From Malacoraja senta (Eukaryota), in assembly GCA_038087875.1 (NCBI GenBank), contig CM075990.1, positions 1 through 64,000 of the forward strand: DNA of 64,000 nt, written 5' to 3'. A program made the translations under genes and the position numbers. Each line of letters opens with the position of its first letter. The stretch's first letter is position 1. The notes under the pieces were generated by a model. That model saw only the letters and a program-made list of their open reading frames with translations, made no database searches and had not been told where the DNA came from. This document shows positions 21,315 to 59,522 of the stretch, one piece after another.

Positions 21315-21654
21315 AAATTTGCCAATGACACAAAGCTGGGTGGCAGTGTGAACTGTGAAGAGGATGCTATGAGGATGCAGGGTGAATTGGATCGGTTGGG
21401 TGAGTGGGTAGATGCATGGCAGATGCAGTATAATGTGGATAAATGTGAGGTTATCCACTTTGGTGACAAGAACAAGAAGGCAGATTATTATCTGTATAGT
21501 GTCAGATTAGGAAAAGGGGAAGTGCAACGCGACCTGGGTGTCATTGTACATCAGGCACTAAAAGTAAGCATGCATGTACAGCAGGCAGTGAAGAAAGCTA
21601 ATGGCATGTTGGCCTTCATAACAAGAGGATTTGAGTATAGGAGCAAAGAGGTCC
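21315..21654 (+). mobile_element. CR1 RT fragment, left part (continues at 35708)
   Basis: ..GFEYRSKEV | LLQMYRALVRPHLEY rejoins across the provirus/DIRS insert at GTCC. Confidence 0.9.
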
Positions 21655-22402
21655 TGTAAATTGCTCGTTCTAAGCTTCCCCCCAGTCTAGTTTCAGTAAA
21701 AAAAATCACGGAATCAAGCACTTACGCATCTAAACTTTATTTTGACAAAACACAATTACAGTTTCCACTACTGAACCTAACCACCGCGGGTTTGATCCTC
21801 ATATCTGCCTGATCAAGCACTCTAGGCCTCGCTCAAACAGAGACACTCCAGAAGGTCACGCAGTCCTAAGCGCTCTCACAGAAGATAGACACAGGACGTC
21901 GTGGCAGCGGACTTTTATAGGTCCTCGGACCTCGAGGGGCCGAACCACATGGGGGTGGTCTCTTTACAATCCAATTACAGATATCGATTAACCCCATACA
22001 TGACAGACATTTCCCTAACCCAATAAAACAGTGGCTAATACATTGTATTCAAACAGTGTTTCTCAGAGGAAACGAACATTTGCCCTGATATGCAAGAAAA
22101 CCAAACAAGGCTCAAAACGTAATCCAATCAACATTCAGCAAAGTAAAGCTTTGCAACATTATTTACAATGTGTATGCATTAATCCAATCCATTCTATGCA
22201 TTTTGCACCTAATTGTCAGGGTCTGCAGATGTTCCCATTCTCTTCCTGCAGCTCTGATCTAGGCTCTGGACAAACTGGCACCACTCTGCAGCTTGTCCCA
22301 TTTCTACAGAAAGCACTTTTAAATTGATCAAATGGCCTAGCAGCCCAGAAGCCTTTACTCAATTTTAGGGTCCTAGCCTCTCCAATTTGACGAGGATTAA
22401 CA
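21655..22402 (-). repeat. 3' LTR (748 bp)
   Basis: TGTAAAT..ATTAACA ends; on minus strand TATAAAA 21913-21919 and AATAAA 21736-21741. Confidence 0.92.
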
Positions 22403-22414
22403 TTCCTTCCTTTT
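22403..22414 (-). other. Polypurine tract
   Basis: AAAAGGAAGGAA on minus strand abutting the 3' LTR. Confidence 0.85.
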
Positions 22415-22599
22415 GATCATATATGATAACCCATCATTTATGATAGCCAAATAGTCAAATAATCAGCTAACCAGATGTGTGTCCATTACATTTCCCATCT
22501 ATCAGCAACACAAGATGATGATGTTTCTTCCCAGAATCTTGTCAAGCTTCCCTAGTTTTCGTGGGTGTAGCTTCACAATTTCCGTCTGATGAGTCTTCA

Positions 22600-24155
22600 A
22601 ATTTAATAGGTAGTATTAACTGGCAGGTTAAGGCTAACAAAATGGTTTTGATTGCCAAAATGTCCCTGCCCCCTTATCTCCCTGCCAGTGTCCTCATCCT
22701 CTACCCTCGGGGTTCCAAGTATCCCGGTAACCTCTCGGAATCCTTTGGTTTCTAAAACCCGTGGCCCTCTTCTTTGCCCCCTTCCTTCTCAATAGTACTC
22801 CCTCACAGGACACGACCGACTCCAATGTCCCAATTCCCCACAGTTGTAGCACTGATCTGGTCGGACCACTCTATAACCTCTCCAATAAGGTTGCCTCTCG
22901 GAATGGTAGATCTATCCAAGCTTTGAGATCTTCCTCCTCCTTGTCTTCCTCCATAGTTATTTCCCTTTTTTGAATCTTTAATATAGGTCTCTGAGCTGCC
23001 GTCGGACCAGGCTGCATTAACATATGAACGTCCGTGGCCTGAGGAACATTTACACCTAATGCGGGACTTAATACCAAAGGTGGAGTAGGCAGCGTTCTAC
23101 AAACGAACTGCCTATGGGGAATCCGTTCTATACCCCCATCATCAGGGAATTTCTCCGACATAATGATACTATCAATGTCCGGTTCAATCCCTCCGTATCC
23201 TCCTGCTGTCTCACCCTCAGAAAAGCTATTCATTCTGTCTCTGTACTTCTGGAAGGATTCCTTCACTTTCCCACTACTGGATTTTCTAAATACTTTTGGT
23301 ACCCATTTCTGCGGAACCTTCCTTCTGGCTCCTTGATCTCCCATACTATCCCCCACTGGTGGAGCAATCATAGGAGCTAGAGGATCCTTCCCCGAGTTTT
23401 CCACTTCAGATTTGAATTTAGTGGGAGGAGCCGAAGATAACGCTGACCTCCCGTGTGCCCTGTTCGCAAGCTGCACATGGTGTCTCCGCACTGGGAACAT
23501 GAGAGTGCTGTGAGGAATGCTGTGGCTCTATTCTGAATGCTGTGGCTCTACCCACCCTGGCATATTGTGAGCCTCTCTCCCTGCGAGGTCTACAGATACT
23601 GCTGCACTTTTACCAAATGTAATAAGTTTCATTTGAGTCGGCACCTCCCCTTTAAGAGCCATCTCAATTGTTTCCCTTTTACAAGATGGTATTCTCTCCT
23701 GCTCCTGCTGTTGGTTTCCATTATTTAACCAGACTTCTCCTGGTTAAATAAAGGTTATTATTATTATTATCTTCCTGTCCCTGTTCTGGAAGGTCCCAAG
23801 AAGGACCAGTTCTCTCGTGTTACCCTATAATCACTAATTTACATGCCGCCATTCTTAGAGTGGGCAGCAGAATGATCTCTTTATTTATTTTCCTTCTAGT
23901 GAAGAACATTCTCCATATTCCAATTAGCTCATTCCCTTCTTCACTATTTCCATATCGTTTGACAATCATTTCTATGTAGTTTATTCCTATTACAGATTTT
24001 AGTCCACCCAGCGGCCAAAATTCACTTCTCAAAATTGCATTTAATTCTCCAGATAATCCTCTTAATCTGTTTGCTTCATGTGGAAGCTTCTCGCAAATTA
24101 TCCTTATCGGGCTTCCTGATTTGTTTGATCGATCCTTTTCTGAGACATTCCCCAT
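22600..24155 (-). pseudogene. gag: gag remnant: matrix-like N-terminus, Pro/Ser-rich middle, RG-rich segment and CCHC zinc knuckle
   Basis: MGNVS..SPIRIIC..EFWPLGG from 24155; DQCYNCGELGHWSRSCP with the CX2CX4HX4C at 22851-22810, in a frame missing from the ORF track; stops and frameshifts between. Confidence 0.78.
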
Positions 24156-26178
24156 TTTATGAATAGTCACAATACAAAATACAAAATAAAATTTCCAGAC
24201 ACTATTACCTATTCAAATTCACTCCCTCCTTTTAGACTCCAAGGTCAATGGTGTCTCTCCCACACAATGGCTAATCATCTCTCAGATTTGCACCTACTCG
24301 TACAATTGTTCCCTTCCCACCATTACTCAAACACTCACTCAATCGCTCCTATTCAATTATTCAAACCACTTGCTTGTATTCAATCGTTCTCACAACTTTC
24401 TTATCAGTTTGATCACAATCACTTCATTCAACTCTATACTTTCAAACAAAGGATCTCCGGTTTCTCAACTCAACACTCCAACTGTCAATCACAGTCTCTT
24501 TCAAGCAGAAATCTCTCCCACTCAATCCACTTTAAGTTCGCACAGACAGACAAATCCGAACCACGCTAATAAATCTATAATCAAAAATGAAAGTATTCCC
24601 CCAAATATAAGTAACCCCAAACAATCCCCAATATAAACTATAAGCATCCAATAAATCACACTCTAATACATCTTCCTCGTGGCAGATGACTCCTGCCCCA
24701 ACACAGCGATCAAAAGAGTACAGACCCTGATCGAACCACCATGACTCAGATTCTCACAATACTATGATCGAAACAATTACAAACATTTAATTCAAACACA
24801 CCCTTACTTCAATTATCTAAATCCTTAAACACTCACACACGCAGCAATACAACTAGCGGTCCGTGAACTTAACATAATCTAAATCTTAACTTTCTAAATC
24901 TTAATACACTCTAAATGTATTTATCTACACAGAATATTTACACAATTCGAAGCCGATAACAATACAAAAAGCTAGATTTTTACAATTTGCAAAAATGATT
25001 TACTGCACTAGCACACAGTTTACAAATCTCAACACTGCATCACGCTGTTATCAATCAGTGAACCTCTCCCTCCGATACCGAAGATTTTCCCTTTCCTAGT
25101 TTACTCTTTGCTGAGGGGTACTACTCCTTAAATGACTACTTTTCCTCCCGAATGTTACTATCCTCACGCAAAGACTGTACTTCTATAAGGAGACCTCTAT
25201 CCCTGCTCTCTAAGTTCTACAGAATTAGGGGTACCCTTCGCATTTGGATTACTTCTCACCAAGTAAATCAGGTTCCCGTCTCTCAGGTACTCTTCGCTAT
25301 CAGGTACTAATCAACAATCGACCAGAGGGTTACTATTCACTGTTGATCAGCCACTATTCGGAATCGATCACAGACATGCACAAAATCTGAAGTTCTATCT
25401 ACACAGAATTCGAATTCTACCGTATGGGCAGAACTTCAATGTGAAATTATGTATTTGGAAATTTGATTCTGCAAATCTAGACTCGTTCTCGAACTCCTAG
25501 TTTTGGTGCGTACCATTCCATATACGCGGGCTCGCTAATTAAACTAAATTGCCCAATGAAAAAATCTCGAATGGACTATAGTATTCTCATCCAATTTATA
25601 CCCTATCCACTGAGCCCAGTACCTTTTCGAGGTTCCTCATCCGTCACTTCAAGGGAGGGACTCAGACACCTTCATGCAGTCACCCCTTTCTGCTGGGCAC
25701 TGAGGATTCAGCGCCTAGCCTCTTCGCGCTGGCAGTCGTCGATGCCGATTTTCAGAATGCTCCTTTCCAATCTGTGCTCCCGGCAATGATAGATCAATAC
25801 GTAGGTCAGACCTGTGTTTTAATACCCCACCAATTGGATACCAAATCTAACCTTCGCCCAATGAAGCACGTCAAGCTCCCGTTAAAGCAGCTGCAGTCTG
25901 CCAACTACGACCAGGTTTTGGGCCACTCCACGCCCTGTTTTATGGGCCCCTAACCCAAAGGAGTGCTAACCACCCTCCCCCCCGCCCCGTGCTTGCTAGA
26001 CTCTGCTCAAATTATCTCAATTGGACCCTTTCCCAAGCCCACGAATGATCGATCCGTTCCGACTAACGAACTGCCGAAATTTAATGCGAAAACCACACAG
26101 TGGACACCAATTTCTGCATTCGCGATCGAAAAAGCTTAACACCCTTGATCGTAAACTTATGTTTGGGGGTCTGTTGAG

Positions 26179-26191
26179 ATCCCGGACGAGC
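26179..26191 (-). other. Primer binding site, tRNA-Pro type, partial
   Basis: GCTCGTCCGGGAT = last 13 nt of the 18-nt Pro PBS TGGGGGCTCGTCCGGGAT, directly next to the 5' LTR. Confidence 0.85.
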
Positions 26192-26930
26192 TCGTTCTAA
26201 GCTTTCCCCCAGTCTAGTTTCAGTTAAAAATCACAGAGTCAAACGCATCTAAACTTTATTTTGACAAAACCCAATTACAGTTCCTACTACTGTACATAAC
26301 CACCGCGGGTCCGATCCTCATATCTGCCTGATCAAGCCCTCTAGGCCTAGCTCAAGCAGGGACACTCCAGAAGGTCACGCGGTCCTAAGCGCTCTCACAG
26401 AAGATCGACGCAGGACCTTGTGGCAGCAGACTTTTATAGGTCCCCGGACCTCGAGGGGCTGAACCACATGGGGATGGTCTCTTTACAATCCAATTACAGA
26501 TATCGATTAACCCCATACATGACAGACATTTCCCTAACCCAATAAAACAGTGGCTCATACATTGTATTCAAACAGTGTTTCTCAGAGGAAACGAACATCG
26601 CAACATTTGCCTTGATATGCAAGAAAACCAAACATGGCTCAATACTTAATCCAATCAACATTCAGCAAAGTAAAGCTTTGCAACATTATTTACATTGTGT
26701 ATGTCTGGTTTGCATTCATCCAATCCATTCTATGCATTTTGCATCTAATTCTCAGGGTCTGCAGATGTTCCCATTCTCTTCCTGCAGGTCTGATCTAAGC
26801 TCTAGACAAACTGGCACCACTCTGCAGCTTGTCCCATTTCTACAGAAAGCACTTTGAAATTGACCAAATGGCCTAGAAGCCTTTACTCAATTTTAGGGTC
26901 CCAGCCTCTCCAATTTGACCAGGATTAATA
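26190..26930 (-). repeat. 5' LTR, U5 tip deleted
   Basis: Direct repeat of 21663-22402 with scattered substitutions and indels; TATAAAA 26432-26438, AATAAA 26255-26260 on minus strand. Confidence 0.92.
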
Positions 26931-27149
26931 GTAAGATTAAATGAGAACTTACCAGTTTGAAGTGTGATCTTTATTTTATGAGGAGTTACGATGAGGGATT
27001 ACGTGAAGAGCCCGCCAGCCCGCATGCGCGTCAATCTTCAAAGCAGTGGTGTGAAGTCACAGATAACAGTTGTTGAACTGAATATAGTAAGATTCGATAA
27101 ACTAGAACTACCAGCTGACCTTTATGAGGAGAGGGTTGGGAGCGGAGGG

Positions 27150-27276
27150 CACGTAATCCCTCATCGTAACTCCTCATAAAATAAAGATCAAGCTTCAAAC
27201 TGGTAAGTTCTCATTTAATCTTACTATTTTAATCTTACTATTTTACTTCGGAGTCACGTGAGTGACTACGTGAAGA
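27150..27276. repeat. DIRS internal complementary region (ICR)
   Basis: 27150-27228 is the reverse complement of 26927-27005 (2 mismatches); 27237-27276 is the reverse complement of 35670-35709 (2 mismatches). Confidence 0.93.
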
Positions 27277-27404
27277 TTTCAAAGCTCTGTGAATTCATGC
27301 CGTGGACACGAGTCCATGCGTCACACACTGCATCAATTGACCAAGGATGAGTGAAAATAATAATGCATTCAGACATGCTGATGCTTGTTAATGAGCAAAT
27401 GAAC

Positions 27405-28330
27405 TTAAAATGGAATTGACAAATACCCCCGGTCTGGCAATGGGTTTGTTATAAAACATTTTTGGAAAGTTCGTTCGTTTGACCATCCTGCAGTCGCTAG
27501 GATATGGTCGAGTGGAACCTCCATAACCCTTGCTGCTGACGTTGTTGCAGCCCTGGTGGAGTGAGATTTGAAAACATCAGTATCCACTCCTGCACAAGCC
27601 AGAACCCGTTTTATACACCTGGAGATGGTCTGTACTAATACCTTCTTATGAGGTTTATTGTAACTAACAAACCTTGCTAGTTCAGAGCCTCCAAGGCTCT
27701 TGGTGAGCTTAACGTACTGTTGTAGATAAATGACCACACACAACCGAAGGTCCATGGGGTATGCCATGAATCTAATTTCAGACTGGACGCCTCTGTTCTA
27801 CTCTGCTTGACTAAGTCATAAACATAAAATGTTATAATATTTGCAGATGTAACCATCCTGTCCAGTTGCAGCTCATGCAATGACTGGACCCATTTCGCTG
27901 AAACCAGCGCCATGAGCATAACCACTTTGTAAGTGAGTTTGACCAAGGACAGAGATGTAGCTGGAGCCCACCGGCGAAGCAGCGTGAGCACCACGTTAAC
28001 ATCCCATATCACCGAATACCTGGGCCTGGGGGAATTTGAGTTGAAGATACCCTTCATAAACCTAGCTATCTGAGGGTGAGACTCGACAGAGTGGTGTCCC
28101 GATCCCAGCAACAAGTATGACGACAAGGCACTTCTGGCACCATTTATGGCACTATAATCAATCCCTCATCAAAATATAGTTTTGAGAGGAATTCCAACCC
28201 ATCTGTTATACATGCTGTGTCATACGAAATGTAGGACTGTAACAGAACACTTCCTATTTCTTGATATAGGAGTGATCACGTCCTCCGTACGATCTGACAG
28301 TCCAAGCCCCAGAAAAGGTCTTCTCAGAGT
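27405..28330 (-). pseudogene. DIRS tyrosine recombinase, frameshifted
   Basis: HPQIARFMKGIFN..PRYSVIWDV..LMALVSA; FKSHSTRAA (HxxR)..AGWSNERTFQK. Confidence 0.88.
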
Positions 28331-29800
28331 CTGAAAACCAACAAATGGATTTGATCCTCCCCAGTCACGGGGTGAACCAACAGATTTCTGCGTTTGGGAA
28401 CGGCCATACAAGGCTCTGATATTATTCCTAGTATCAGTGGGAACCATGGCTGCGTAGGCCAGTCAGGCATTACCAACATGCCTGACGCGGGATCTTGCTG
28501 TATTTTTGCAAGTACCGACTGATGAGGCAAAATGGAGGGAAATGCCTAAAAGAACATTCCTCCCCAGTGTAGCGAGAATGCATCCATCGCCACTGCCCCT
28601 GGGTCTGGCTGCCATGCTGTCCGGTGTTCCATACCGAGCAACAATGTCGTTCACACGTTATGATCGAACATCCATTCTGTGTTGTCATTAAATTTCCGTG
28701 ACCTGGTGTCCGGCACCATGTTAAACCTACCTGGTAAGTAGGTACCTGAAACCCAAATGTTTCTTGCAATACACCAGTGCCAAATAAGGTTACCCAGTTT
28801 ATCCCAAGATACTGACTTGATTCCACCCATGTGATTAATATATGCCACCACTGTAGTGTTGTCAATCTGTAGTTGAACATGCAGATGATGCATATTCCCA
28901 CCATAAGCCTTCAACCCATAGAGTGCTCCCAGCACCTCTAAATAGTTGATACCATGTAACTGAAAGCTTGATGACTTATGCACATTCCATCTGCCGCCAT
29001 AGCTAGAGATGGTATTGGTAGCACCCCAACCTTGAGCACTAGTATCAGATTGTAATTAAACTGAAGATTTGCTGACCAAATGTTACTGGAGCAATGCCGA
29101 ATATTGGTCATCCACCACTGATACTCAGAAATGGATTCAGCTGGAAATCGCATAGGTCTGATTAAAGAGACCTGCATGGTATTAGTGCTTGCTCCTTAGC
29201 ACATTCTGATAATGCAAAGGCCCAAGCTGTGCAGCTGGAAAGCAGCCACTAATTTGCCAATTACACTGGCTAATTGTCGAATAGAAGGTTGCTCCATAAC
29301 AACGAGATTGTTACAGGCTTCTATTAATTCTAATCTCTTGACCCAAGGCAGAGTCACGGACATGTGAAATAAAGTTAATGGTAAATCCCAAATACTAAAT
29401 TATTCTAGATGGTGTCAACTTGATTTAACTGGATGGATGAGAACCCCAATCTCTAAAACATGGGTTTAGTGGCTGAAACAGCTAATTTAGCCAACTCCAG
29501 GGTTTTCCTTATGATTAGGATATCATCCAAATATGCCATAACAATATGATTTTGAGCTCAAAGTAGCCCAAGTTCTGGCTTCAATAATTTGGTAAGTAAT
29601 CTGGGCTGAAGTTAACCCATTAGGCAATGCTTTAAACTGCCACAGTTGCCCCATCCAGCTAAATTTCAAATATCTCCGGTGATCCCAGCGAAAGGGTACC
29701 GAGATAGTATGCATCTTTGAGATTGATGCATGCCATATAACATCAGTATGGAAATCAGTCGTTTGGCAGTAACAAATTTTCCATTTTGAAATGTCTATAC
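28324..29800 (-). pseudogene. DIRS RT / RNase H / methyltransferase-like remnants
   Basis: YLKFSWMGQLWQFKALPNGLTSA (RT); INYLEV..IDNTTVVAYINHMGG..LPGRFNMVPD (RH); VMPDWPTQPWFP (MT-like). Confidence 0.85.
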
Positions 29801-30627
29801 TGCACAAAACCAGTTAAGTCTAGTCAAAATATACTAGAAACAAATTGGTTCACGACTCAACTTCTCAATTGCCCCTTGTATATAACTTTTGAATTTCAGC
29901 ATGTACATCCAAATCTTCCTGTTGAGAATGGACAATGTCCGGTTTGGTGTATGCTGTGTGGGTGGCAATGAATTCAATTTGGAAACATTGTATACTGTGC
30001 AGTATAAACAAATCTGATGTTATCCAACGCCTTTCATTCTAAACAAGTGTAATATCACCAACTTGTAACTGATCCACACAACCCATGTGTCGAAAAGAAC
30101 CAGACCCACGTACCTGCATTGTAACCGGTGGTCCTACGGTAAGCCCAAAGGCCCCTGATGTGGATTCTATTCCCGTCCTTGATTTGGAGGGTAGGACTGC
30201 TGGGATACGTGGATTACACATTTTCCATGAGGGCCGGCTTGGGCCTAGGCCTGAAGACCTCCGCCCAGAGAATCAGCTTTCAAGCTGCCACCAGCTTCAG
30301 TGAACCGCTTACTGCCGATGGAGGCGTAGGGGTGTTTGTCGCCGAAACGGTGAAGCTTTGTTCGTCGCTGGTACCTTGATTAGTCTGACAGCTTTGCTTC
30401 CTCATCGAAGTTTTTACCTGTTCGGCTGGGTCTTCTCCAAGGAGAAGATTCGGCGGCTGGACATTGCTGGCCTCACCATCCATAGTCACCCCAGATAGCG
30501 CTGTTCACTGCCGGCACCTTCAGAAATGCACAATTTACAGGTGTATGTTCCTGTAATGACGTGACGTGAGGTCACTGATGCTTACCAAGCTTGTAATGTG
30601 AGGGGAAACTCTGCCCCCCCCCCCCCG

Positions 30628-30741
30628 GGTTTTCTGCCATAGGCTGGAAGCCAACTCTTCCTGCAGCAGCTCCTCCGTTTGCGAGGATATCGCAACCTTT
30701 GATGCCATCTTGAACCTCATGCATGTACTCCAGTATGTTTC
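30628..30741 (+). repeat. 114-bp direct repeat, left copy (L1 TSD)
   Basis: Matches 34860-34973 with 2 substitutions; abuts the L1 poly(T). Confidence 0.93.
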
Positions 30742-33700
30742 TTTTTTCTTTTTTTTTAATATTTTTTATTATTGGAGATAAGTACACAACTTATTTACAT
30801 CATTACAGTCTAACATTTTTGAATTGATAATATTGTCAATTATTATTACATTGTCTCCAATACCTTTTGCCTTTTTTTTAAAAACTAGATAGAACTAAAG
30901 AGATAGATGAAGTAAAGAAAGAAAAGAAAGAGAAGAAGAATAAAAAAAAATTAAAAAAAACAAAGAGAAAAAAAAAAAAAAAAAGGAGAAAAATAGTTAA
31001 AGAAGAATGGAAAAATTTATTGAAATAAAAAACTTCATTCGAGGTATATTCGTACATTTCAGAGTATAGCATTTCATCCATTCTTTAGCCCGAGTGCTAG
31101 TCAGGTTCCTGTGCTGAACTATTCTGACCCTTTAAGTAATCAATAAAAGGAGACCATGTTCCTACGAATAATTCCTGTTTGTCCAACAGGGAAAATCTGA
31201 TTCTTTCCACGTATAAGGTCTCCGTCATTTCTATAATCCACATTTTGATTGTGGGGGCCGTAGGGCCTTTCCAAAATTTTAGAATTAATTTTTTTCCTGT
31301 TATTAAACTATAATCAATAAAATTTCTTTGTGTTGTTCTAAATGTTTGATTTAATTCTAATATTCCGAGTATTATTAATTTTGGATCTGGGTCCAATATT
31401 GTGCCGGTTACTTTAGATATTATACTGAAAATATTTACCCAGAATTTTTTAATTTTTATACAGTTTGCAAACATATGAGATAATGTAGCTTCTAAATGTT
31501 GACATTTATCACATATAGGTGAGATATGTTGAAACATTTTATGTAGTTTTGTTTTTGAATAATGTAACCTATGTATTACTTTAAATTGTATTAGAGAATG
31601 TCTGGCGTTTAGTGAGCACTGATGTATGTGTTGCAAACTTTCTTCCCAAGTATCTTTCGTTATTACTTGATTTAATTCTTTTTCCCATGTTTGTCTGTGT
31701 AATTCCGTCGAAGGAATGTCACTGTCTAATAAGATATTATATATATAAGATATTAATTTTTCTGTATTAGGATGTTTGTTCCAACATTCATCAAGAATTT
31801 CTGAATTTCTAAATCGAAAATTTTGAGAGTTCGATTTTACATAATCTCTAAGTTGAAGATATCTGAAATAATCATTTCCTCGAAGTCCATAAGTCTGTTG
31901 CAACTCCTGAAATGTCAGAAAGGTGCCTTCCTTATAAAGTTGTCCCATATTTTTAATTCCATAATTCTTCCATTGTGTAAAACCCCCGTCCAACCATGAA
32001 GGCTTAAACAAAGGGTTATTCACAATTGGAAGAAAAAGTGATAAATTATCTAATTTTAATGTCTTTTTTAATTGTTTCCAAATTCGTATAGCACTAAATA
32101 TTATAGGGTTTTCCCTATAAATTTTTTTGTTTAATTTAGACGTAGCAAATAATATCGAACCGATATCAAAAGGTAAACAATCTTCCTTTTCCATTTTTAA
32201 CCAGTCTGGTTGATGATCTATTTCTTCCAACCAGAAATTCATATTTTTGATATTAACAGCCCAGAAATAAAACAAAAAGTTGGGTAAAACCAAGCCTCCA
32301 TTTATTTTTGATTTACACAAGTGTCTTTTGTTTATCCTATGATTCTTATAATCCCAGATAAAATCATTAACAATAGAGTCCAGTTTTAAAAAAAAGTTTT
32401 TTGTCAGATATATCGGAATTGTCTGAAAAAGGTATAATATTTGCGGTAAAAAAATCATTTTTATAGCATTAATTTTGCCAACCATTGAGATAGGAAGTGT
32501 TTTCCAGTATTGAATATTCTTATGTAGTTTGTTCAATAATGGGGGAAAATTTGCTTTAAATAATGATGTATATCTCTTAGTTATATAAATACCTAGATAT
32601 TTAAATTTTTCATTTACTATCTTAAATGGAAATTGTTGTATTATCTGTTTGTTATGTTCCCTTATTGGCATAATTTCACTTTTATTCCAATTTATTCTGT
32701 ATCCTGAAAGTGAACCAAATTGGGTTATTAGCTTTAATAAGTTTGGAATACTAATTTCTGGTTTTGTAATGTAAATTAATACATCATCTGCGTATAGAGA
32801 AATTTTATTCACTGTGTCCTTTGTGTTATACCCATGTATTTCCGGATGCCCCCTAACTCTTTCTGCCAGTGGCTCAATAGCAAGCGCAAATAATAATGGA
32901 GATAACGGGCATCCTTGTCTACAACCTCTAGATAGGCTAAATTTAGATGACAACCTTTGGTTTGTAAGTATTCTAGCCGTGGGATTTGTATATAACAGTT
33001 TTATCCATGTACAGAATTTCTCCCCTAGCTGCATATTTTCCATCACCGAAAATAAATAAGACCATTCCACCTGATCAAATGCTTTTTCAGCGTCAAGTGA
33101 GATTATTGCTAGATCTTCGTTAATAATTCTCTTGGAATATATAATATTAAATAATCTTCTTAGATTATAATATGAATACCGTTTCTGAATAAAGCCTGTT
33201 TGGTCAGGGTGTATTAATTTATTCATCACTGTACTTAATCTATGCGCTAGTATTTTAGTTAATATTTTCTGATCTGTATTTAAAAGTGCAATTGCTCTGT
33301 ATGATCCCGGGTCTTCCGGATCTTTATCAGCTTTAGGAATAAGTGTTATTATAGATTCATTTAAAGTGTCTGGAAGTTTCTGTTGAGTATAGATATATTC
33401 ATACAGTCTTTGTAAACGTGGGCAAAGCAAATCATAAAATTTTTTATAAAATTCGGAGCCTAAACCATCTGGTCCTACTGCTTTACCATTTTTTAAAGAA
33501 CCAATAGACTCTTCAATATCCTTTATCGTAATCTCCCTTTCTAATAATTCTCTATCGTTTGAATCTAAACCTTTTAAATTACATTTTAGTAAAAAATCTG
33601 CTATTCCTTCTGATTGTGCTACTGTTTTAGTTGAATAAAGGTTATAATAGTATTGGAGAAATCTATCATTTATGTCCTTGGGCATTTTTAATAATTCTCC

Positions 33701-34859
33701 TGTCTCTGTTCTAATTTTATGAATTATTTTTTCCCCTTCCATTTTTCGTAACTGACGTGCTAATAGTTTTTGTGGTTTGTCTCCAAATTCAAAATGTAAT
33801 TGTTTGGTTTTTTGATAAAGTTTTATTACTTGTTCTGAATACATTTTATTTAATTTATATTTCAATACAACGATTTTATTATGTTTTAAAGTAGATGGCA
33901 TTCTCGCATTTTCTATATCTAGTTGCTTGATTTCGCTTTCCAATGTTTGTTGCTTAATCCTGTTCTCTTTGTTATAAAATGCTTGAGCAGAAATTAATGT
34001 ACCTCGAACATACGCTTTAAACGTTTCCCACATAAGAGAAGTAGGTGTGTCAGGGTTGTCATTTACCTCAAAAAATATTTGAATCTGTTTAATAATATAT
34101 TCCTGGCATGATCTTTCATTCAAAATTTGTGGGTTAAATCTCCAATATGCTTGTTTCTCGGACATTCCATTCAATTTAATCATGAATGTTACAGGTGCGT
34201 GATCTGAGATTATAATGTTATGGTATTTTAAATTATAAATAAATGGGGTAAACGTAGAGTCAACTAAAAAATAATCTATTCTTGAGTATGTTTTATGTAC
34301 TGGTGAGTAAAATGAATATTCCCGTCCAGTTGGGTTTTCTATTCTCCAGACATCCTTTATATTAGAGGTATTAATAAATGAATTTAGAAATACACTTGAT
34401 TGGGATTTTACTTTTTTTTGCCTTGATGATCTATCTAAGTATGAATCTAATGTACAATTGAAGTCTCCTCCAATTATTAATTTATATTGTGTAAATTCAG
34501 GAATTTTATTAAATGTTTTATTAAAAAACATGGGGTTATCAAAATTAGGCCCATATACATTCAGAAGAATCACTTTTTCTCCATTTAACTCTCCAACTAG
34601 TATAATATAACTACCATCAATATCCACTATTGTTGAAGAGTTCGTAAAAGGTATTCCTTTACGAATTAATATTGCAACTCCTCTGGACTTGTGGGAAAAG
34701 GAGGAATGATATGCTTCAGCGATCCACTTAGCTTTAAGTCTATGTTGAGATTCCTTTTTAAGGTGTGTTTCTTGAAGAAATATTACATCTGTTTTGAGTA
34801 AATTTAAATGTGCCAAAACTTTACCTCTTTTAATTGGTTCATTGATTAATTGGTTCATT
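30742..34859 (-). mobile_element. L1-clade LINE, 5'-truncated at the start of ORF2
   Basis: Open ORF2, T-rich 3' UTR, AATAAA, poly(A), flanking direct repeats. Confidence 0.95.
31097..34858 (-). CDS. L1 ORF2p-like protein (APE endonuclease lacking its first strand, RT, C-terminal Cys/His domain), 1253 aa from first ATG
   Basis: FLQETHL, GGDFN, SRIDY, SDH; LDAEKAFD, GCRQGCPLSP, LYADD; CDKC..H..C; no internal stops. Confidence 0.88.
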   Translation of the reverse strand: MNQLINEPIKRGKVLAHLNLLKTDVIFLQETHLKKESQHRLKAKWIAEAYHSSFSHKSRGVAILIRKGIPFTNSSTIVDIDGSYIILVGELNGEKVILLNVYGPNFDNPMFFNKTFNKIPEFTQYKLIIGGDFNCTLDSYLDRSSRQKKVKSQSSVFLNSFINTSNIKDVWRIENPTGREYSFYSPVHKTYSRIDYFLVDSTFTPFIYNLKYHNIIISDHAPVTFMIKLNGMSEKQAYWRFNPQILNERSCQEYIIKQIQIFFEVNDNPDTPTSLMWETFKAYVRGTLISAQAFYNKENRIKQQTLESEIKQLDIENARMPSTLKHNKIVVLKYKLNKMYSEQVIKLYQKTKQLHFEFGDKPQKLLARQLRKMEGEKIIHKIRTETGELLKMPKDINDRFLQYYYNLYSTKTVAQSEGIADFLLKCNLKGLDSNDRELLEREITIKDIEESIGSLKNGKAVGPDGLGSEFYKKFYDLLCPRLQRLYEYIYTQQKLPDTLNESIITLIPKADKDPEDPGSYRAIALLNTDQKILTKILAHRLSTVMNKLIHPDQTGFIQKRYSYYNLRRLFNIIYSKRIINEDLAIISLDAEKAFDQVEWSYLFSVMENMQLGEKFCTWIKLLYTNPTARILTNQRLSSKFSLSRGCRQGCPLSPLLFALAIEPLAERVRGHPEIHGYNTKDTVNKISLYADDVLIYITKPEISIPNLLKLITQFGSLSGYRINWNKSEIMPIREHNKQIIQQFPFKIVNEKFKYLGIYITKRYTSLFKANFPPLLNKLHKNIQYWKTLPISMVGKINAIKMIFLPQILYLFQTIPIYLTKNFFLKLDSIVNDFIWDYKNHRINKRHLCKSKINGGLVLPNFLFYFWAVNIKNMNFWLEEIDHQPDWLKMEKEDCLPFDIGSILFATSKLNKKIYRENPIIFSAIRIWKQLKKTLKLDNLSLFLPIVNNPLFKPSWLDGGFTQWKNYGIKNMGQLYKEGTFLTFQELQQTYGLRGNDYFRYLQLRDYVKSNSQNFRFRNSEILDECWNKHPNTEKLISYIYNILLDSDIPSTELHRQTWEKELNQVITKDTWEESLQHIHQCSLNARHSLIQFKVIHRLHYSKTKLHKMFQHISPICDKCQHLEATLSHMFANCIKIKKFWVNIFSIISKVTGTILDPDPKLIILGILELNQTFRTTQRNFIDYSLITGKKLILKFWKGPTAPTIKMWIIEMTETLYVERIRFSLLDKQELFVGTWSPFIDYLKGQNSSAQEPD

Positions 34860-34973
34860 GGTTTTCTGCCATAGGCTGGAAGCCAACTCTTCCTGCAGCA
34901 GCTCCTCCGTTTGCGAGGATAACGCAACCCTTGATGCCATCTTGAACCTCATGCATGTACTCCAGTATGTTTC
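34860..34973 (+). repeat. 114-bp direct repeat, right copy (L1 TSD)
   Basis: Matches 30628-30741; DIRS sequence continues after it. Confidence 0.93.
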
Positions 34974-35707
34974 ATGGACATACTTCCAAGTTTGGAGTCA
35001 GTCACACACTGACCCCTCGCTCTCCCCTCCACAGAGAGCGAGATTTGTAAGCAGCCCTGAAACAGGTGCTGCTGCCGGTCCCCAACGAGACCTGCGCTGA
35101 TATGACCCCGTTCCATGGACCATATCAGGATGGAGCATCACCTCAGTGGGATGAACGCCCTGCGGACGCATCCATGCTCCACCTGGGTAAACGTCCGAGG
35201 ACGTACCCATGGAGGGGAACCCTCCTGGCCTGACTTGTCCCAGTCCAGGCCTGTCGGACTCCATTCGGCTGCACAGCCTCTCGGGGCTGCCGGAGTCTGG
35301 AGTCGCTGTCCGCCCTGTCAGCGACTTGGGTAGCGAACCTGACCGCCGCCAGCTGCCCGCACTCCCGCGGAGCCGCGATTCCCCGCGGTCTCCGTAGCCG
35401 GGTTTCCCCGAGCCGGGTCTCTCCGCTGAGCCGGGATTTCCCGCGGTCTCCGTAGCCGGGTTTCCCCGAGCTGGGTTTCCCCGCGGAGCCGGGATTTCGA
35501 CCCCGGAATGTCATCCAGCAGGAACTCTGTAAAAGAGCTTCCTGCAAGGAAAAAGCACAACCTGAAATTAAGTTCGAAAACTTACCTGCAGGATTTTGAA
35601 ACTGACCGCTGGAGGAGCGACGCGCCTTCCAGCCAGTCGTTGTGCCATGCGTTAGACGTAATGGCGGCCTCTTCACGTAGTCACTAATGTGACTCCGAAG
35701 TAAAATA

Positions 35708-36392
35708 GTCCTTCTGCAGATGTACAGAGCCCTGGTGAGACCACACCTAGAGTATTGTGTGCAGTTTTGGTGTCCTAATTTGAGGAAGGACATTCTTGCT
35801 ATTGAGGGAGTGCAGCGTAGGTTCACAAGGTTAATTCCCGGGATGGCGGAACAGTCATATGATGAAAGGTCGCCATAGACAAAATCGATACTTTTTTTAC
35901 TCATAGGTTAGTCGAAATAGGTCGTAGTAGGTCGGCATGTTATTCATATATAATCGAGGGTATTCGAAGGTAATCGAAGGTTACTGAAGGTAGTCGTAGA
36001 TAGTCTTCAACATATTTGAAGGGAGGTTGAAAGGAGGTCGAAGGAGGTTGTCTTCACTCTCCACTATTCGGTGTCCAATTTTCCCGAAGCTAGTCAAAGT
36101 TAGTCGAAGCTAGTCTTCAACATAGTCGAAGGAGGTCGAAGGAGGTCTTCTACATGACATTTTTTTAAACTCTCCTGAACTCTTCTAAACTGGCCAATTA
36201 GGTCACCACAGTGGGCAGCCCCTTATTAGATAGAGTTCTTAGGGCTAGCGGAATCAAGAGATATGGGGAGAAGGCAGGAACGGGGTACTGATTGTGGATG
36301 ATTAGCCATGATGACATTGAAGGGCAGTGCTGGCTCGAAGGCCGAAATGGCCTACTCCTGCACCTATTTTCTATGTATCTATGTATCTATGT
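35708..36392 (+). mobile_element. CR1 fragment, right part, with internal deletion and MITE remnant
   Basis: LLQMYRALVRPHLEYCVQFW to 35868, 3' end from about 36226, (ATCTATGT)n tail. Confidence 0.85.
35869..36223. mobile_element. One-ended PIF/Harbinger-like MITE remnant
   Basis: Ends CAGTGGGCAGCCCCT followed by TA; internal GTCGAAG-type short repeats; left TIR not found. Confidence 0.5.
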
Positions 36393-43400: not shown

Positions 43401-43752
43401 TGCAATTTTGTCTACCTTCCAAACAGGGTTTGTCATTTGAGACTGGGAGAGAGGATGTTTGGTAAACATAGGGTGCCATTTATGTCATCAGTTCATGGAC
43501 ACTTACACAGATTTTTAGAATCAACATTTGTTTATTGGGGGTAGGGCAATGGCTATATTATGTATTAGACTAAGTGGGATCTGTTGATCACCCAACGCAA
43601 TATTCCACCTCTCCACCAATTCCAATATTGGTGGCCATTGGGGGGGGAGATGGGGGGGGGACTTTCTGGTGCGCTAGTATGGATGTTATGGGCCAAAGGG
43701 ACTGGTTTCCAGAGGGCTAGTATGGACATTGAGGGCCAAATGGATTCTTGGG

Positions 43753-43965
43753 TTGGCAGCTCAGTCACTCAGGCCTGGTGGGCTGGCAGCTCAGTCACTC
43801 AGGACTGGTGGGCTGGCAGCTCAGTCACTCAGGCCTGGTGGGCTGGCAGCTCAGTCATTCAGGCCTAGTGGCTGGCAACTAAGTCATTCAGGCCTGGTGG
43901 GCTGGCAGCTCAGGCCTGGTGGGATGGCAGCTCAGTCACTCAGGCCTGGTGGGCTGGCAGCTCAG
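43753..43965. repeat. 30-bp minisatellite, about 7 units, inside Helitron
   Basis: Unit GGCTGGCAGCTCAGTCACTCAGGCCTGGTG. Confidence 0.92.
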
Positions 43966-44083
43966 ACACTGCCAGAAATTTTGCCCAAAACAGGTGAGAA
44001 ATTCTGTGAGAGAGAAGGGGAAAAGGGTGAGAATCAATTTTAGACATTCTTCATCTTTTTCTGCAGATCACAGCAATGAAGGA

Positions 44084-49029: not shown

Positions 49030-49650
49030 TAAAGCAGACCAAACAACTCAACTCATTTCATTTCATTTTCATTTCCATTTCAAGCACAGGGCAAGCCAAA
49101 CAACTCATTTCATTTCATTTCATTTTCATTTCCATTTCTATTTTGCATTGCCGTTTCAAGCACTGGGCAGGCTAAACAATTCATGGCATTGTCATTTCAT
49201 TTCCATTTTGCATTGCAGTCTCAAACACAGGGCAGGCCAAAGAACTCATGGCATTGTCATTTCATTTCCATTTTGCATTGCAGTCTCAAACACAGGGCAC
49301 GCCAAAGAACTCATGGCATTGTCATTTCATTTCCATTTTGCATTGCAGTCTCAAGCATAGGGCACGCCAAACAACTCATGGCATTGTCATCTCATTTCAA
49401 TTTTGCATTGCAGTCTCAAGAACAGGGCAGGCCAAACAACTCATGGCATTGTCATTTCATTTCCATTTTGCATTGCAGTCTCAAGCACAGGACAGGCCAA
49501 ACAACTCATGGCATTGTCATTTCATTTCCATTTTGCATTGCAGTCTCAAGTACAGGGCAGGCCAAACAACTCATGGCATTGTCATTTCATTTCCATTTTG
49601 CATTGCAGTCTCAAGCACAGTGCAGGCCAAACAACTCATTGCATTGTCAT
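49030..49650. repeat. 65-bp minisatellite inside Helitron
   Basis: Unit GGCATTGTCATTTCATTTCCATTTTGCATTGCAGTCTCAAGCACAGGGCAGGCCAAACAACTCAT. Confidence 0.92.
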
Positions 49651-50136
49651 TAAGGGCTAACAAATCATTTATTGCAAGTACATTGCAGACTCACAGTTCA
49701 GTTGATTCACCGCTTAGAATCACAGTCGTGGCCTCTCCCTCGCGATCTTCCAGAGTGACTGACTCACATCCAGGCATCCGGGGTCCTGCCCCCCCCCCGG
49801 AAGGGGCATTACCTTCATCATTGTGATTGTCAGGTGAGAGGACCAATCAGCTGATCTCAAGATTTTTTGAACACTCATAACTTTTTGTATTTTTCATCGA
49901 TCGGAAAAATCCTCAGGGCTGCCTCAGCTGAGGTGGACTGTGAGTAAGGTTGCCAAAAATCATAGCGATATATGGTAGCGTTTTTTCTAAAATCAATATA
50001 CAGCGCAGACAGGAAGTGGTCAAGATGAGACTTTTAGTTATATAGATGCTAGATCACGTCAACAACAGTAGAGGCAACTTGTGAGCGAGTCTGTTTCCTC
50101 AACCCTGATCAGCAGAATGCCTCTTTCTGCTGTTGT

Positions 50137-52166: not shown

Positions 52167-54186
52167 ATCACCCCACACTGTGCACTTTCACCTCCCCATG
52201 CAGCAACCCACCAGCACCACCACCTCCACACACACCACCTCCACACACCATACACCACCACACACCACCACCACACACCACCACACACCACCACACACCA
52301 CCACCACACACCACCACACACACACCACCACACACCACCACACACCACCACACACCACCACACACCACCACACACCACCACACACCACACACCACACCAC
52401 CCACCACACACCCCACACCCCACACACACTACACACCACCACACCACCACACACCACACACCACCACACCACACACCCCACACACACCACACACCACCAC
52501 ACCACACACCACACACACACCACACACCACCACACCACACACCCCACACACACCACACACCACCACACCACACACCACACACACACCACACACCACCACA
52601 CCACACACCCCACACACACCACACACCACCACACCACACACCACCTCCACACACCACACACCCCACACCCCTCACTGTGCACTTTCACCTCCCCATGCAG
52701 CAACCCACCATCACCACCACCACCACCACACACCACACACCACCACACACCACCACCACACACCACACACCACCACACACCACCACCACACACCACACAT
52801 CACCACACACCACCACACACACACACCAAACACCACACACCACCCACCACCACACACCACCACACACCACCACACCACACACCACCACACACCACCACAC
52901 ACCACACACCACCACACACCACCACACACCACACACCACCACACACCACCACACACCACCACACCCACACACCACCACACACCACCACACACCACACACC
53001 CACACACCACCACACACCACCACACACCACCACACACCACACACACCACACACCACCACACCACACACCACCACACACCACACACCACCACACCACACAC
53101 CACCACACACCACACACCACCACACACCACCACACACCACCACACACCACCACACACACACCACACACCACCACACACCACCACACACCACACACCACCA
53201 CACACCACCACACACCACACACCACACACACCACCACACACCACACACCACCACACACACCACCACACACACCACACACCACCACACACACCACACACCA
53301 CACACACACGACACACCACCACACACCACCACACACACACACCACACACCACCACACACACCACACACCACACACCACCACACACCACCACACACACCAC
53401 ACACCACACACCACACCACACACCACACACACCACACACACACACACACACACCACACACCACACACCACCCACACCACACACCACACACCACCACCACA
53501 CACCACACACCACACACACACACCACCACACCACACACACCACCACACACCACACACCACCACCACACAACACACACCACCACACATCACCACACACCAC
53601 CACACACCACCACACACCACCACACACCACCACACACCACCACCACACACCACACACCACACACCACCACACCACCACACACCACCACACACCACCACCA
53701 CACGCCACACACCATACACCACACACCACCATACACCACACACACCACACATACACCACACCACCACACACCACCACACACCACTACACACCACCACACA
53801 CCACCACACACCACCACACACCACCACACACCACCACACACCACCACCACACACACACACCACACACCACCACACCACCACCACACACCACACACACCAC
53901 CACCACACACCACACACCCACACCACACACCACCACACACCACACACCACCACACACCACCACACACCACACACCACACACCACCACACACCACCACACA
54001 CCACACCACCACACCACCACACACCACACACCACCACACACCACCACACACCAGACACCACCACACACCACCATACACCACACACCACCACCATACACCA
54101 CCCACACCACACACACCACCACCACACACCACCACCACACCACCCACCACCACACCACCCACCACACACCACCCCACACCACCACT
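52167..54186. repeat. Irregular C/A-only simple repeat (CACCACACAC-like), about 2 kb
   Basis: Almost no G or T on + strand; irregular mix of CA and CCA units. Confidence 0.95.
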
Positions 54187-57230: not shown

Positions 57231-58161
57231 AGGAGGTGGTGGAGGCAGGTACAATTACAAAGTTAAAAACATTTAAACAGGTATTTGAATCGGCAAAGTT
57301 TAGAGGGAAATAGACCAGCCCCAGGCAAATGGAACCAGCTCAGAAATCACCTTGGTTGACGAGGACAAGTTGGACCAAAGGGCTGAATAAGACTGTAGCT
57401 TGCTCAACCTAGATTAATGGAACCAAACGTTGAGATTGTGCAGTGGAGGCAGCCTGTATCCGACATATCCAGAACATGACCAAAGTTTAATACCCCAACA
57501 TGCCATGAGATACCAAAGGCTCTCTAAAAAAATAAAGCTGTGAGAAGTGGTAGAAAGAGATGTATTTGCTGAGTGCAGCTGTACCTTTTCTTCGCTAACC
57601 TCCTGTGGTTTTGTCTATCCAGAAATCTATGACCTACACAATAAATAATCTAATAGCTCGAAATGTCTACATTCTGTATGCAAAATATTACAATTGCAAA
57701 CAATGAGGGGCTGTTGAGTGAAGAAACACTAAAATTGGATTCCAGCCATTGAAACAAATAAGCAGCTATCTTGATTGAAACCCTGCTGAGCCTAAAGGGC
57801 TGATGTGTTGTGTGACGAGCTTCTTTCAAAGGAAATTATTGCTGTGAAAATCTTAAACTTTGTGTTTTCACATCAAAAAAGACACTCCATCGTAAATATG
57901 AATGCATTGATTATTTTTTCCAGTTATTGCAATTTAATATTGTATTAAAATATTAAATACTAGACTAAGTGGGACCCGTTGGGTCCCATGTTCACACGGG
58001 AGGGCTGGTCCCCCAACGCAATATTCCACCTCTCCAACAATTCCAATATTGGTGGCCAGTGGGGGGGGGGCGGCTTTCAGGAGCGCTAGTATGGGTGTTG
58101 TGGGCCAAAGAGACTGGTTTCCAGAGGGCTCGTATGGACATTGTGGGCCAAATGGATTAAT

Positions 58162-58654
58162 GGGCTGGCAGCTCAGTTACTCAGGCCTGGTGGGCTAGCA
58201 GCTCAGTCACTCAGGCCTGGAGGGCCTGCAGCTCAATCACTGAAGCCTGGAGGGCTGGCAGCTCAGTCACTCTGGCCTGGTGGGCTGGCAACTCAGTCAC
58301 TCAGGCCTGGTGGGCTGGCAGCTCAGTCACTCAGGCATGGTGGGCTGGCAGCTCAGTCACTCAGGCCTGGTGGGCTGGCACCTCAGTCACTCAGGCCTGG
58401 TGGGCTGGCAGCTCAGTCACTCCGCCTGGTGGGCTGGCAGCTCAGTCACTCAGGCCTGGTGGGCTGGCAGCTCAGTCACTGTGGCCTGGTGGGCTGGCAG
58501 CTCAGTTACTCAGGCCTGGTGGGCTGGCAGCTCAGTCACTCAGGCCTGGTGGGCTGGCAGCTCAGTCACTGTGGCCTGGTGGGCTGGCAGCTCAGTCACT
58601 CAGGCCTGGTGGGCTGGCAGCTCAGTCACTCAGGGTTGGTGGGCTGGCAGCTCA
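58162..58654. repeat. 30-bp minisatellite, about 16 units
   Basis: Same unit as 43753-43965. Confidence 0.93.
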
Positions 58655-59019
58655 GAAACTGCCAGAAATTCTGCCCAAAATATGTGAGAAACTCTGTGAG
58701 AGAGAAGGGGGGGGATGATTGAGAATACATTTTAGACATTTTTCATCTAATTCTGCAGATCACAGCAATGAAGAAGGGATGTCTATCCTGGCCTGGATCT
58801 CACCGGGAGCCAATGAAGGGAGGGAGAAAAATACTGGGGTGAGGTTTAATATTTGCAGGGGGAATATTTACTGATGGGCCAAAGGGACTCCTCCTGGGCT
58901 AGTAAAGGCCTGATGGGCTGAAGAGACTCTTTGGAAAAAAATCTGTGAAATCTCAGTGAAATGACTTTTCCTGGCATCATTTTCATGTCCATTTCACTTC
59001 ATTTCCCTTACCAATTCGG

Positions 59020-59522
59020 TTTCAAGCACAGGGCAGGCCAAACAACTCATCTCATTTTCATTTCCATTTCATTTCATTTCCATTGCCATTTCAGTTTCAA
59101 GCACAGGGCAGGCCAAACATCTCATCTCATTTTCATTTAATTTCATTTCCATTGCCATTTCAGTTTCAAGCACAGGGCAGGCCAAACAACTCATCTCATT
59201 TTCATTTCATTTCATTTCCATTGCCATTTCAGTTTCAAGCACAGGGCAGGCCAAACAACTCATCTCATTGTCATTTCATTTCATTTCATTTCATTTCCAT
59301 TGCCATTTCAGTTTCAAGCACAGGGCAGGCCAAACAACTCATCTCATTTTCATTTCATTTAATTTCCATTGCCATTTCAGTTTCAAGCACAGGGCAGGCC
59401 AAACAACTCATCTCATTTTCATTTCATTTCATTTCCATTGCCATTTCAGTTTTAAGCACAGGGCAGGCCAAAGAACTCATCTCATTTTCATTTCATATCA
59501 TTTCCATTGCCATTTCAGTTTC
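59020..59522. repeat. About 69-bp minisatellite
   Basis: Unit contains TTTCAAGCACAGGGCAGGCCAAACAACTCAT plus variable (CATTT)n. Confidence 0.9.

Follow-up and report, generated by a model that had tools for sequence, protein, structure and literature searches.

A provirus in the 64,000-nt stretch of DNA analysed here (the window) is most likely, at a probability of about 0.7, a decayed, helper-dependent member of a non-autonomous family of class I (ERV1-type) endogenous retroviruses (ERVs) in skate-like elasmobranchs. Its gag is a broken frame of ~507 codons with a single zinc knuckle, and the spacer that leads to this knuckle apparently has no detectable capsid in the provirus itself, in copies that have diverged from it, or in a relative whose frame is open. 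Pfam analysis of nine frames of the internal region revealed no pol or env family, and the pro-pol and env ORFs that characterize an autonomous provirus were not present.

Structure and Integration Site of the Provirus

All of the parts listed in the initial annotation (LTRs, PPT, Pro PBS, leader, MG-starting ORF with a WPLGG motif, and knuckle) were found on the minus strand, the ORF being located at 24155-23820. The features of the provirus and its surroundings are as follows:

21651-21654, plus strand: TSD GTCC, 3' side, within a host CR1 LINE
21655-22402, minus strand: 3' LTR, 748 bp, TG...CA, with TATAAA at 21919 and AATAAA at 21741
22403-22414, minus strand: PPT, abutting the 3' LTR
22415-22633, minus strand: tail between gag and PPT, about 220 nt, no pol/env family found
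22634-22809, minus strand: Gag C-terminal tail, basic, Arg/Gly-rich, broken in the provirus, colinear with the end of XP_055498707
22810-22851, minus strand: single zinc knuckle CX2CX4HX4C preceded by DQ, Pfam PF00098
22871-23819, minus strand: spacer, ~320 codons in several frames, Pro/Gly/Ser-rich, predicted mostly unstructured, no capsid found
23820-24155, minus strand: MGN-starting helical N-terminal domain, 111 aa, with a stop at its end in the provirus, putative matrix by position and motif
24156-26178, minus strand: leader, 2.0 kb
26179-26191, minus strand: tRNA-Pro PBS remnant, 13 nt, matching the PBS-Pro probe for MLV given in PMC4587795
26190-26928, minus strand: 5' LTR, by homology to the 3' LTR, its outer terminus taken by the DIRS insertion
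26929-35707, minus strand: DIRS-type (tyrosine recombinase) retrotransposon, a later insertion on the LTR/host junction, outside the provirus
35708-35711, plus strand: TSD GTCC, 5' side, where the host CR1 LINE resumes

The provirus has the paired TG...CA LTRs, PBS and PPT of a class I element. The LTRs are identical at 682 of 722 aligned bases (94.5%; K2P 0.058), which corresponds to 13-131 My at rates of 2.2e-9 to 2.2e-10, a rate-dependent age that was not relied on. Private damage of the provirus includes several frame breaks and lost LTR/PBS bases: the 5' LTR stops short on its PBS side, and the PBS is without its first bases. Contigs with loose ends at 26191 (21 in sequencing run X1, 42 in run X2) show that the LTR-PBS junction is complete in other copies. 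The first 411 nt of the leader fold modestly better than shuffled sequences (z -1.74), and no packaging signal is claimed for them. The distance from the gag end to the PPT, initially given as ~190 nt, is rather ~220 nt, as homology to XP_055498707 places the end of gag near 22634.

Across the insertion site, the interrupted CR1 LINE of the host aligns colinearly with three other CR1 copies in the window; thus, the 4-bp GTCC TSD is genuine, as first proposed, but its second copy lies at 35708-35711 and not at 26930. The DIRS element between the two GTCC duplicates separates them by 8.8 kb. This DIRS element itself contains an L1 fragment.

Coding Content of the Mini-Gag

The position of the N-terminal domain and its motifs fit the initial designation "matrix-like", while no sequence or fold search confirmed a matrix: Pfam, PDB sequence, Atlas and three fold searches all left this identity unsupported. 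MGN is present in three of the five relatives, at identities down to 33%, and WP.GG is conserved. The domain is modelled as five helices with a mean pLDDT of 56, and this low-confidence model had no significant match in Foldseek PDB, BFVD or VIA wide; the highest Z was 4.7, at an rmsd of 2.7 with 62 aligned. Among proteins of 266-849 aa, no relatives of the N-terminal domain were found.

The spacer, 10% of which is proline, is modelled as two helices with a pTM of 0.17. Its longest open piece comprises 218 aa (23527-22871), and the first stop and the knuckle of the provirus are 323 codons apart. Fold searches with the low-confidence models of the N-terminal domain and spacer were uninformative, so that the absence of a retroviral matrix or capsid among the matches listed does not count against either. 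The knuckle reported at 22851-22810 was recovered by Pfam as zf-CCHC (PF00098) with an E-value of 1.5e-7, which passes the curated cut-off. No late-domain motif was found in any of the four provirus fragments scanned.

Relatives in Little Skate and Catshark

The named protein relatives are two only, from little skate and catshark, which lends indirect support to the elasmobranch host proposed at the outset. The little skate (Leucoraja erinacea) protein XP_055498707 (P0005) is annotated as the product of a gene; its frame is open over 313 aa, and it is colinear with three window frames from the spacer through the knuckle to the C terminus (E-values of 6e-67, 1e-13 and 2e-10). As annotated, it has no N-terminal domain; its knuckle is degenerate, with the His lost, and a PPDY motif is located 30 residues upstream. 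The best PDB match of this protein is MoMLV NCp10 (E-value, 0.0034), its Atlas model has a pTM of 0.14, and Pfam gave just a weak zf-CCHC match and no capsid. In the knuckle region, 21 of 27 residues are identical between this protein and the provirus, which has retained the full CCHC. In the spacer, 67 of 176 aligned residues differ (62% amino acid identity), all six alignment gaps are in-frame, and no stops were observed against 4.1-4.9 expected if neutral (P 0.007-0.017), a test that is biased because the protein was found as an annotated ORF.

The relative from catshark, XP_072335647, is 33% identical over the N-terminal domain that it has in common with the provirus, and it contains the motifs PSAP and PPEY. 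No significant similarity was detected between P0003 and P0005, and alignment A1, the profile of which is probably dominated by the catshark tail, had no match among proteins of 530-2000 aa. Protein searches (266-849 aa; 530-2000 aa) yielded no full-length relative with a capsid, and the viral and metagenome contigs scanned with A1, P0005 and an LTR 25-mer gave no match.

Copies in Other Sequencing Runs

The internal layout of the provirus is covered in 30 of 30 bins in all four runs counted, which come from three coded organisms and make up 4 of the 20 runs with matches (6113, 8187, 7300 and 299 contigs placed). A crude estimate gives roughly 60-150 copies per organism; the ratio of gag-bin depth to single-contig depth (medians 141, 155 and 93; minima 76, 83 and 58) is not a copy number. 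Flanks of varied sequence follow the LTR termini in 52, 81 and 62 contigs, and only 1-3% of the contigs in the three large runs continue into unlike sequence. Copies that are 10-14% diverged in other organisms have the same layout; contig 9 of run X19, for instance, spans 22754-23525 with 89 differences, 15 gap letters and no large insert. None of the 18 loose ends listed from the three large runs falls within 22900-23820, and no long piece among those listed bridges 23530-23771 (to ~23800), where the depth is flat; the matches listed comprise 32 of the 22,086 pieces and 24 of the 2,566 loose ends. Because Logan contigs end wherever the assembly branches, a minority of copies with a capsid could escape detection in them.

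In the other runs, the bin 22434-22567 (tail, PPT side) is ~4-fold deeper than gag, and the leader parts 24980-25515 and 25784-26185 are 2-8 times deeper. Thus, relatives without this gag seem to spread well. There were no RNA runs with the element among the matches listed, and X19 is probably DNA.

Capsid and Class Assignment

The initial annotation offered two explanations, a satellite mobilised in trans and a one-off deletion. The complete bin coverage, the LTR flanks, the diverged contigs and the open little skate protein favor the first, as a family. That an ordinary full-length provirus has simply suffered a single internal deletion would agree with the private damage noted above, but it would leave unexplained a layout shared with copies 10-14% diverged and with a protein of 62% amino acid identity, and is therefore hardly credible; the picture of a uniquely deleted provirus among full-length copies is contradicted by the same observations. 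It is also improbable that a capsid has escaped recognition, whether as a highly divergent fold of the spacer or as a segment near 23530-23800 in most other copies. The capsid searches with the provirus and the little skate protein were of low power and had no positive capsid control, single-sequence fold predictions often fail, and the control for the Pfam scan, the broken reverse transcriptase of the DIRS element, went undetected as well (no families in three of three frames), so that capsid negatives from broken frames are weak. Moreover, the 323 codons before the knuckle would be long enough, and 23530-23771 is unbridged by any listed piece. Against this, about 240 of these codons are covered by the open relative, proline-rich, and unstructured according to two prediction methods, and the remaining ~90 are too few, as a retroviral capsid has about 210-260 aa; the flat depth over 23530-23771, with no listed loose end there, points the same way. 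The P-I/F-R-E residues just before the knuckle may be the stump of a deleted capsid, a suggestion to which no evidential weight was given. Nor was any given to a reading of the final ~25 residues of P0003 as a capsid start, for which no match was obtained.

The initial label "gamma-like" has been corrected to class I, which stands on the Pro PBS, the 4-bp TSD and the single retroviral CCHC knuckle, a finer placement needing pol. True gammaretroviruses are reported from amniotes only (PMC6001957), and shark class I ERVs group with epsilonretroviruses (PMC4422223). With no pol to place the family, and with gag-only BHIKHARI elements known in fish (PMC12067270), a derivative of Ty3/Gypsy or of a lokiretrovirus (BHIKHARI-type) might be considered instead. 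Such an origin is very unlikely given the Pro PBS, the 4-bp TSD and a single knuckle nearest to MoMLV NCp10, whereas a coiled coil, capsid and glycine-rich patch make up the BHIKHARI Gag as described in the same source.

Proposed Role of the Mini-Gag and Alternatives

We strongly infer that reverse transcriptase, integrase and capsid come in trans from a helper ERV, which would recognise the LTRs and leader of the element; no such helper was found. HIV-1 particle formation requires capsid (PMC3227654), so self-assembly of the mini-Gag is unlikely. Judging from the alignments, we consider with moderate confidence that the capsid-less frame has been kept open by selection after capsid loss, as a spacer without stops and with in-frame gaps only looks maintained; the lost knuckle His and the missing annotated N-terminal domain argue against strong selection on the little skate protein. 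The mini-Gag may act as an RNA-to-membrane adaptor, a suggestion that we hold weakly to moderately. Its knuckle and basic tail would bind the element's own RNA, the predicted myristoylated N-terminal domain would carry the bound RNA to sites of helper Gag assembly at the membrane, and a PPxY motif may contribute budding activity. Such an adaptor could give the RNA of the element a packaging edge over its commoner gag-less relatives. Taken as a whole, a natural satellite lineage, in which capsid, enzymes and envelope were lost while a matrix-spacer-late-domain-nucleocapsid mini-Gag is selected across several skate species and loads its own genome into helper particles, is a tentative reading, at somewhat less than even odds.

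Possible too, though less likely, is a helper-dependent family that resembles VL30 in that the RNA hitchhikes by itself, with the mini-Gag as inert baggage. Its open frame would then reflect ascertainment or an RNA-level need, e.g., avoiding nonsense-mediated decay. The greater depth of gag-less leader and tail segments, the degenerate knuckle of the little skate protein, and a spacer identity of 62% between the two relatives, possibly a near-neutral rate, are all compatible with baggage, and VL30 spreads with no intact ORF (PMC4859993); such a frame would, however, hardly be expected to show zero stops and six of six in-frame gaps over 176 residues, a knuckle region so similar to that of the little skate protein with the full CCHC in the provirus, and conserved MGN and WP.GG. 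It is unlikely that the mini-Gag, or one copy of it (e.g., LOC129701504), is kept for the host, as a dominant-negative or decoy Gag against related retroviruses or as a developmental factor like the BHIKHARI Gag: the open 313-aa frame of an annotated gene product would suit such a role, and gag-only ERVs act in zebrafish development (PMC12067270), but the family is multi-copy and the provirus is broken at many places.

If the satellite reading is true, ~100 copies per genome with the ends of Gag but no capsid would represent a natural test of which Gag functions act in cis on the RNA of the element and which can be borrowed, pol- or capsid-based ERV surveys would miss the family, and cartilaginous fish may hold more of its kind. 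Should the frame be baggage, the family amounts to a VL30-like satellite of the usual sort, in a host group new to such elements.

Comparison with Known Systems

The literature searched, mainly open-access papers, yielded no account of a gag-only ERV without capsid, nor one of the skate family. The zebrafish BHIKHARI-1/-2 (Bik-1, crestin) and chicken ENS-1/ERNI are multi-copy non-autonomous gag ERVs complemented in trans (PMC12067270). Like them, the skate family is multi-copy, with LTRs and gag and without pol/env. In that source, their Gag, of lokiretrovirus or ERV-L-sister clades, carries a coiled coil at the N terminus, and capsid is the part of Gag retained, whereas the skate element is without a detectable capsid and combines an MG-starting domain with a CCHC knuckle and a Pro PBS. 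Neither the N-terminal coiled coil nor the glycine-rich C-terminal patch of loki/foamy-like Gags is found in the mini-Gag.

Mouse VL30 (PMC4859993) is a class I-type non-autonomous LTR element; 4-6 kb long, it has a PBS (some Pro), a PPT and a TSD of 4 bp, and is mobilised in trans and packaged by MoMLV. The skate element resembles it in being non-autonomous and class I-type with a 4-bp TSD, PBS and PPT. VL30 differs in having no intact ORFs, whereas the skate gag frame appears open between diverged lineages, as in the 313-aa relative and the 218-aa open piece. The likely source clade in cartilaginous fish is that of CmiERV lineages II/III, the epsilon-like clade Mu (PMC4422223, PMC6001957). 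CmiERVs are defined by pol and env, neither of which the skate family has, so that a pol-less, env-less family would be invisible to CmiERV screens.

MoMLV differs in its amniote host and in encoding capsid, pro, pol and env, which the skate element has not, the capsid at least not detectably. The two are alike in the Pro PBS and, within the MA-p12-CA-NC order of MoMLV Gag, in the single knuckle after DQ, the unstructured proline-rich spacer and, in the skate relative, PPxY. The skate spacer is several times longer than MoMLV p12.

Structure of the Provirus

The components listed for this provirus in the initial annotation, namely two LTRs, a polypurine tract (PPT), 13 nt of a proline primer-binding site (PBS), a 2-kb leader and a zinc knuckle, were all found on the minus strand.

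Features of the provirus and of the element inserted next to it
22402-21655, minus strand: 3' LTR with TG...CA ends
26928-26190, minus strand: 5' LTR, by homology to the 3' LTR
22414-22403, minus strand: PPT, adjoining the 3' LTR
26191-26179, minus strand: tRNA-Pro PBS remnant, 13 bases, directly after the 5' LTR
between PBS and gag, minus strand: leader, 2.0 kb
24155 to ~22634, minus strand: gag, ~507 codons in several frames
22851-22810, minus strand: zinc knuckle, above the Pfam cut-off
26929-35707: DIRS element holding L1, on the LTR terminus

The LTRs are identical at 682 of 722 aligned bases (K2P 0.058). In the window copy, the end of the 5' LTR is missing, along with the first part of the PBS; the 13 bases left match the MLV PBS-Pro probe printed in PMC4587795, and the complete LTR-PBS junction is present in 21 and 42 contigs from other copies. 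The gag of the window copy is interrupted by a stop after 111 codons, with further frame breaks near 23740, 23540, 23450, 22885, 22795 and 22695. The interval between gag and the PPT is short, as had been noted, but measures ~220 nt rather than 190, and therefore leaves no space for pol or env.

Insertion Site and Nested Elements

The 4-bp target site duplication (TSD) described previously is genuine, although its second copy lies at 35708-35711 instead of 26930, because the DIRS element inserted on the LTR terminus and displaced it. The TSD shows that the provirus was integrated by a retroviral integrase. The interrupted CR1 LINE is colinear across the provirus site with three other CR1 copies in the window, and the nesting order is CR1, provirus, DIRS, L1.

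The DIRS insertion point is the exact LTR/host boundary, and TA occupies both junctions where the terminal CA of the LTR is expected; the TA was either present in the target beforehand, in agreement with the DIRS junction, or copied in by repair. The inverted arms of the element (79 nt; 26927-27005 and 27150-27228) are 97% complementary, and its tyrosine recombinase gave a weak Pfam match (E 5.6e-4). An open 1283-aa ORF2 inside it (31097-34948), labelled L1-like by its motifs, is flanked by a ~110-nt duplication of DIRS sequence (by eye, about 30629-30741 and 34861-34973), far longer than a usual target duplication. Minisatellites of 30-bp and 65-69-bp unit types occupy two separate sites each, adjoining CR1-like sequence (43749-43970 and 58161-58655; 49121-49651 and 58983-59526), and a degenerate CAC/CA-rich tandem array of 2 kb spans 52215-54185.

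Copies in Other Genomes and Sister Families

Part of the internal region is present in 20 of the 23 public sequencing runs listed. Contigs of four runs from three organisms were aligned to the window provirus, and all 30 bins (segments of the provirus) were covered in every run. In the three large runs, 52, 81 and 62 contigs pass from an LTR terminus into flanks of many kinds, and gag depth (11 bins) relative to that of single diverged contigs has medians of 141, 155 and 93, read only as "many" copies because this ratio is not a copy number. These data show that the provirus spread as a family; together with an open-frame relative described below, they settle in favor of a family the earlier choice between that and a one-off deletion.

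Only 1-3% of contigs in the three large runs continue into unlike sequence, and none of the 18 loose ends (contig exits from the window sequence) listed for these runs falls within 22900-23820 (24 of 2,566 are listed overall). The 15 joints listed, beside 127 further ones outside the listing, are deletions relative to the window, each supported by 1-3 contigs in a given run. A contig with 12% divergence covers 22754-23525 with 15 gap letters, while 23530-23771 is bridged by none of the pieces listed (32 of 22,086).

Two leader segments (24980-25515 and 25784-26185) and the tail (22434-22567) reach 2-8x the gag depth in three runs, and 49 contigs in X2 and 45 in X3, two of the large runs, depart from the window sequence at 22599. 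This excess and these exits point to at least one abundant sister family that has LTR, leader and tail in common with the window provirus but does not share its gag. Such families may be satellites of smaller size, or else the helper.

Gag without a Detectable Capsid

Of 566 candidates, the spacer query recovered one protein, XP_055498707, a 313-aa product of LOC129701504 in Leucoraja erinacea (E 2.9e-49). Its one uninterrupted frame aligns with three window frames in order, runs on through the knuckle and ends in the same C terminus as the window gag. The Pfam scan of this protein gave a weak knuckle only; among PDB sequences, MoMLV nucleocapsid p10 matches it best (E 0.0034), and the protein's model in the Atlas, a protein structure-model collection, has a pTM of 0.14. 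The 218-aa spacer piece of the window, for which the model shows two helices within an otherwise disordered chain (pTM 0.17), has a proline content (10%) like that of the spacer in a catshark relative. The open frame of XP_055498707 and the disordered, proline-rich spacer indicate that, in two lineages that are 38% apart, the spacer passes into the knuckle with no capsid between them. As the pre-knuckle junction is common to both, the simplest reading is a single capsid loss with spacer divergence afterwards.

In the spacer alignment, 67 of 176 residues differ, all six gaps are in frame, and neither sequence contains a stop, where neutral change would be expected to give 4.1-4.9 (P(0) = 0.007-0.017). 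These are signs, at the sequence level, that a gag frame without capsid may have been kept open. As counterpoints, the knuckle of XP_055498707 lacks its His, the annotated protein lacks the N-terminal domain, and it came to light as an annotated ORF, which weighs against a maintained frame.

The N-terminal domain has four relatives among 1.84 billion representatives; MGN is retained in three of the five relatives and [WF]P.GG in all five. In the catshark relative, XP_072335647, PSAP and PPEY motifs of the late-domain type come after this domain; the protein, annotated as uncharacterised, probably represents the first half of a Gag from an ERV1 element. Pfam, PDB sequence, Atlas and fold searches gave no confirming match to a matrix fold for the domain.

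Possible Role of the Mini-Gag

Without pol, the enzymes must act in trans, as argued for BHIKHARI and VL30 in PMC12067270 and PMC4859993, respectively. Particle building by a capsid-less Gag alone would be unlikely, although Rous sarcoma virus Gag buds despite large capsid deletions. In HIV-1, capsid is needed for particle formation, according to PMC3227654. What is left in the mini-Gag is a putative membrane anchor and an RNA-binding end, with a PPxY late-domain motif in XP_055498707; PMC8402826 describes such motifs as exchangeable and active at several positions. These remaining parts favor the mini-Gag as an adaptor for the element's own RNA, which it would carry to places of helper assembly (probability about 0.4).

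The mini-Gag might instead be inert baggage, a reading that we consider somewhat less likely: gag-less relatives are apparently the commoner ones by the same 2-8x, so that the protein is not required for the spread of such elements, and the signs of a maintained frame have to be weighed beside this. Co-option by the host is unlikely. A capsid that is present but hidden appears quite improbable given the open frame of XP_055498707, even though negative domain scans on broken frames are weak, because the broken DIRS reverse transcriptase was likewise missed.

Classification and Comparison with Known Systems

The provirus had been called gamma-like class I. Its cis signals and knuckle uphold class I, whereas the gamma clade is unlikely for a family hosted by fish, judging from PMC6001957, PMC4422223 and PMC4977317; the exact clade needs the partner pol. 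The family is real: its members are non-autonomous class I ERVs present in several species, with a gag that has no detectable capsid and bears signs of a maintained frame. Literature searches found no description of such a family, which Repbase, Dfam, subscription papers or supplements may already list. VL30 and BHIKHARI are, like the window provirus, helper-dependent ERVs; however, VL30 has no ORF whereas the window family has gag, and BHIKHARI, which is loki-type, retains a capsid. The window family is a member of neither.
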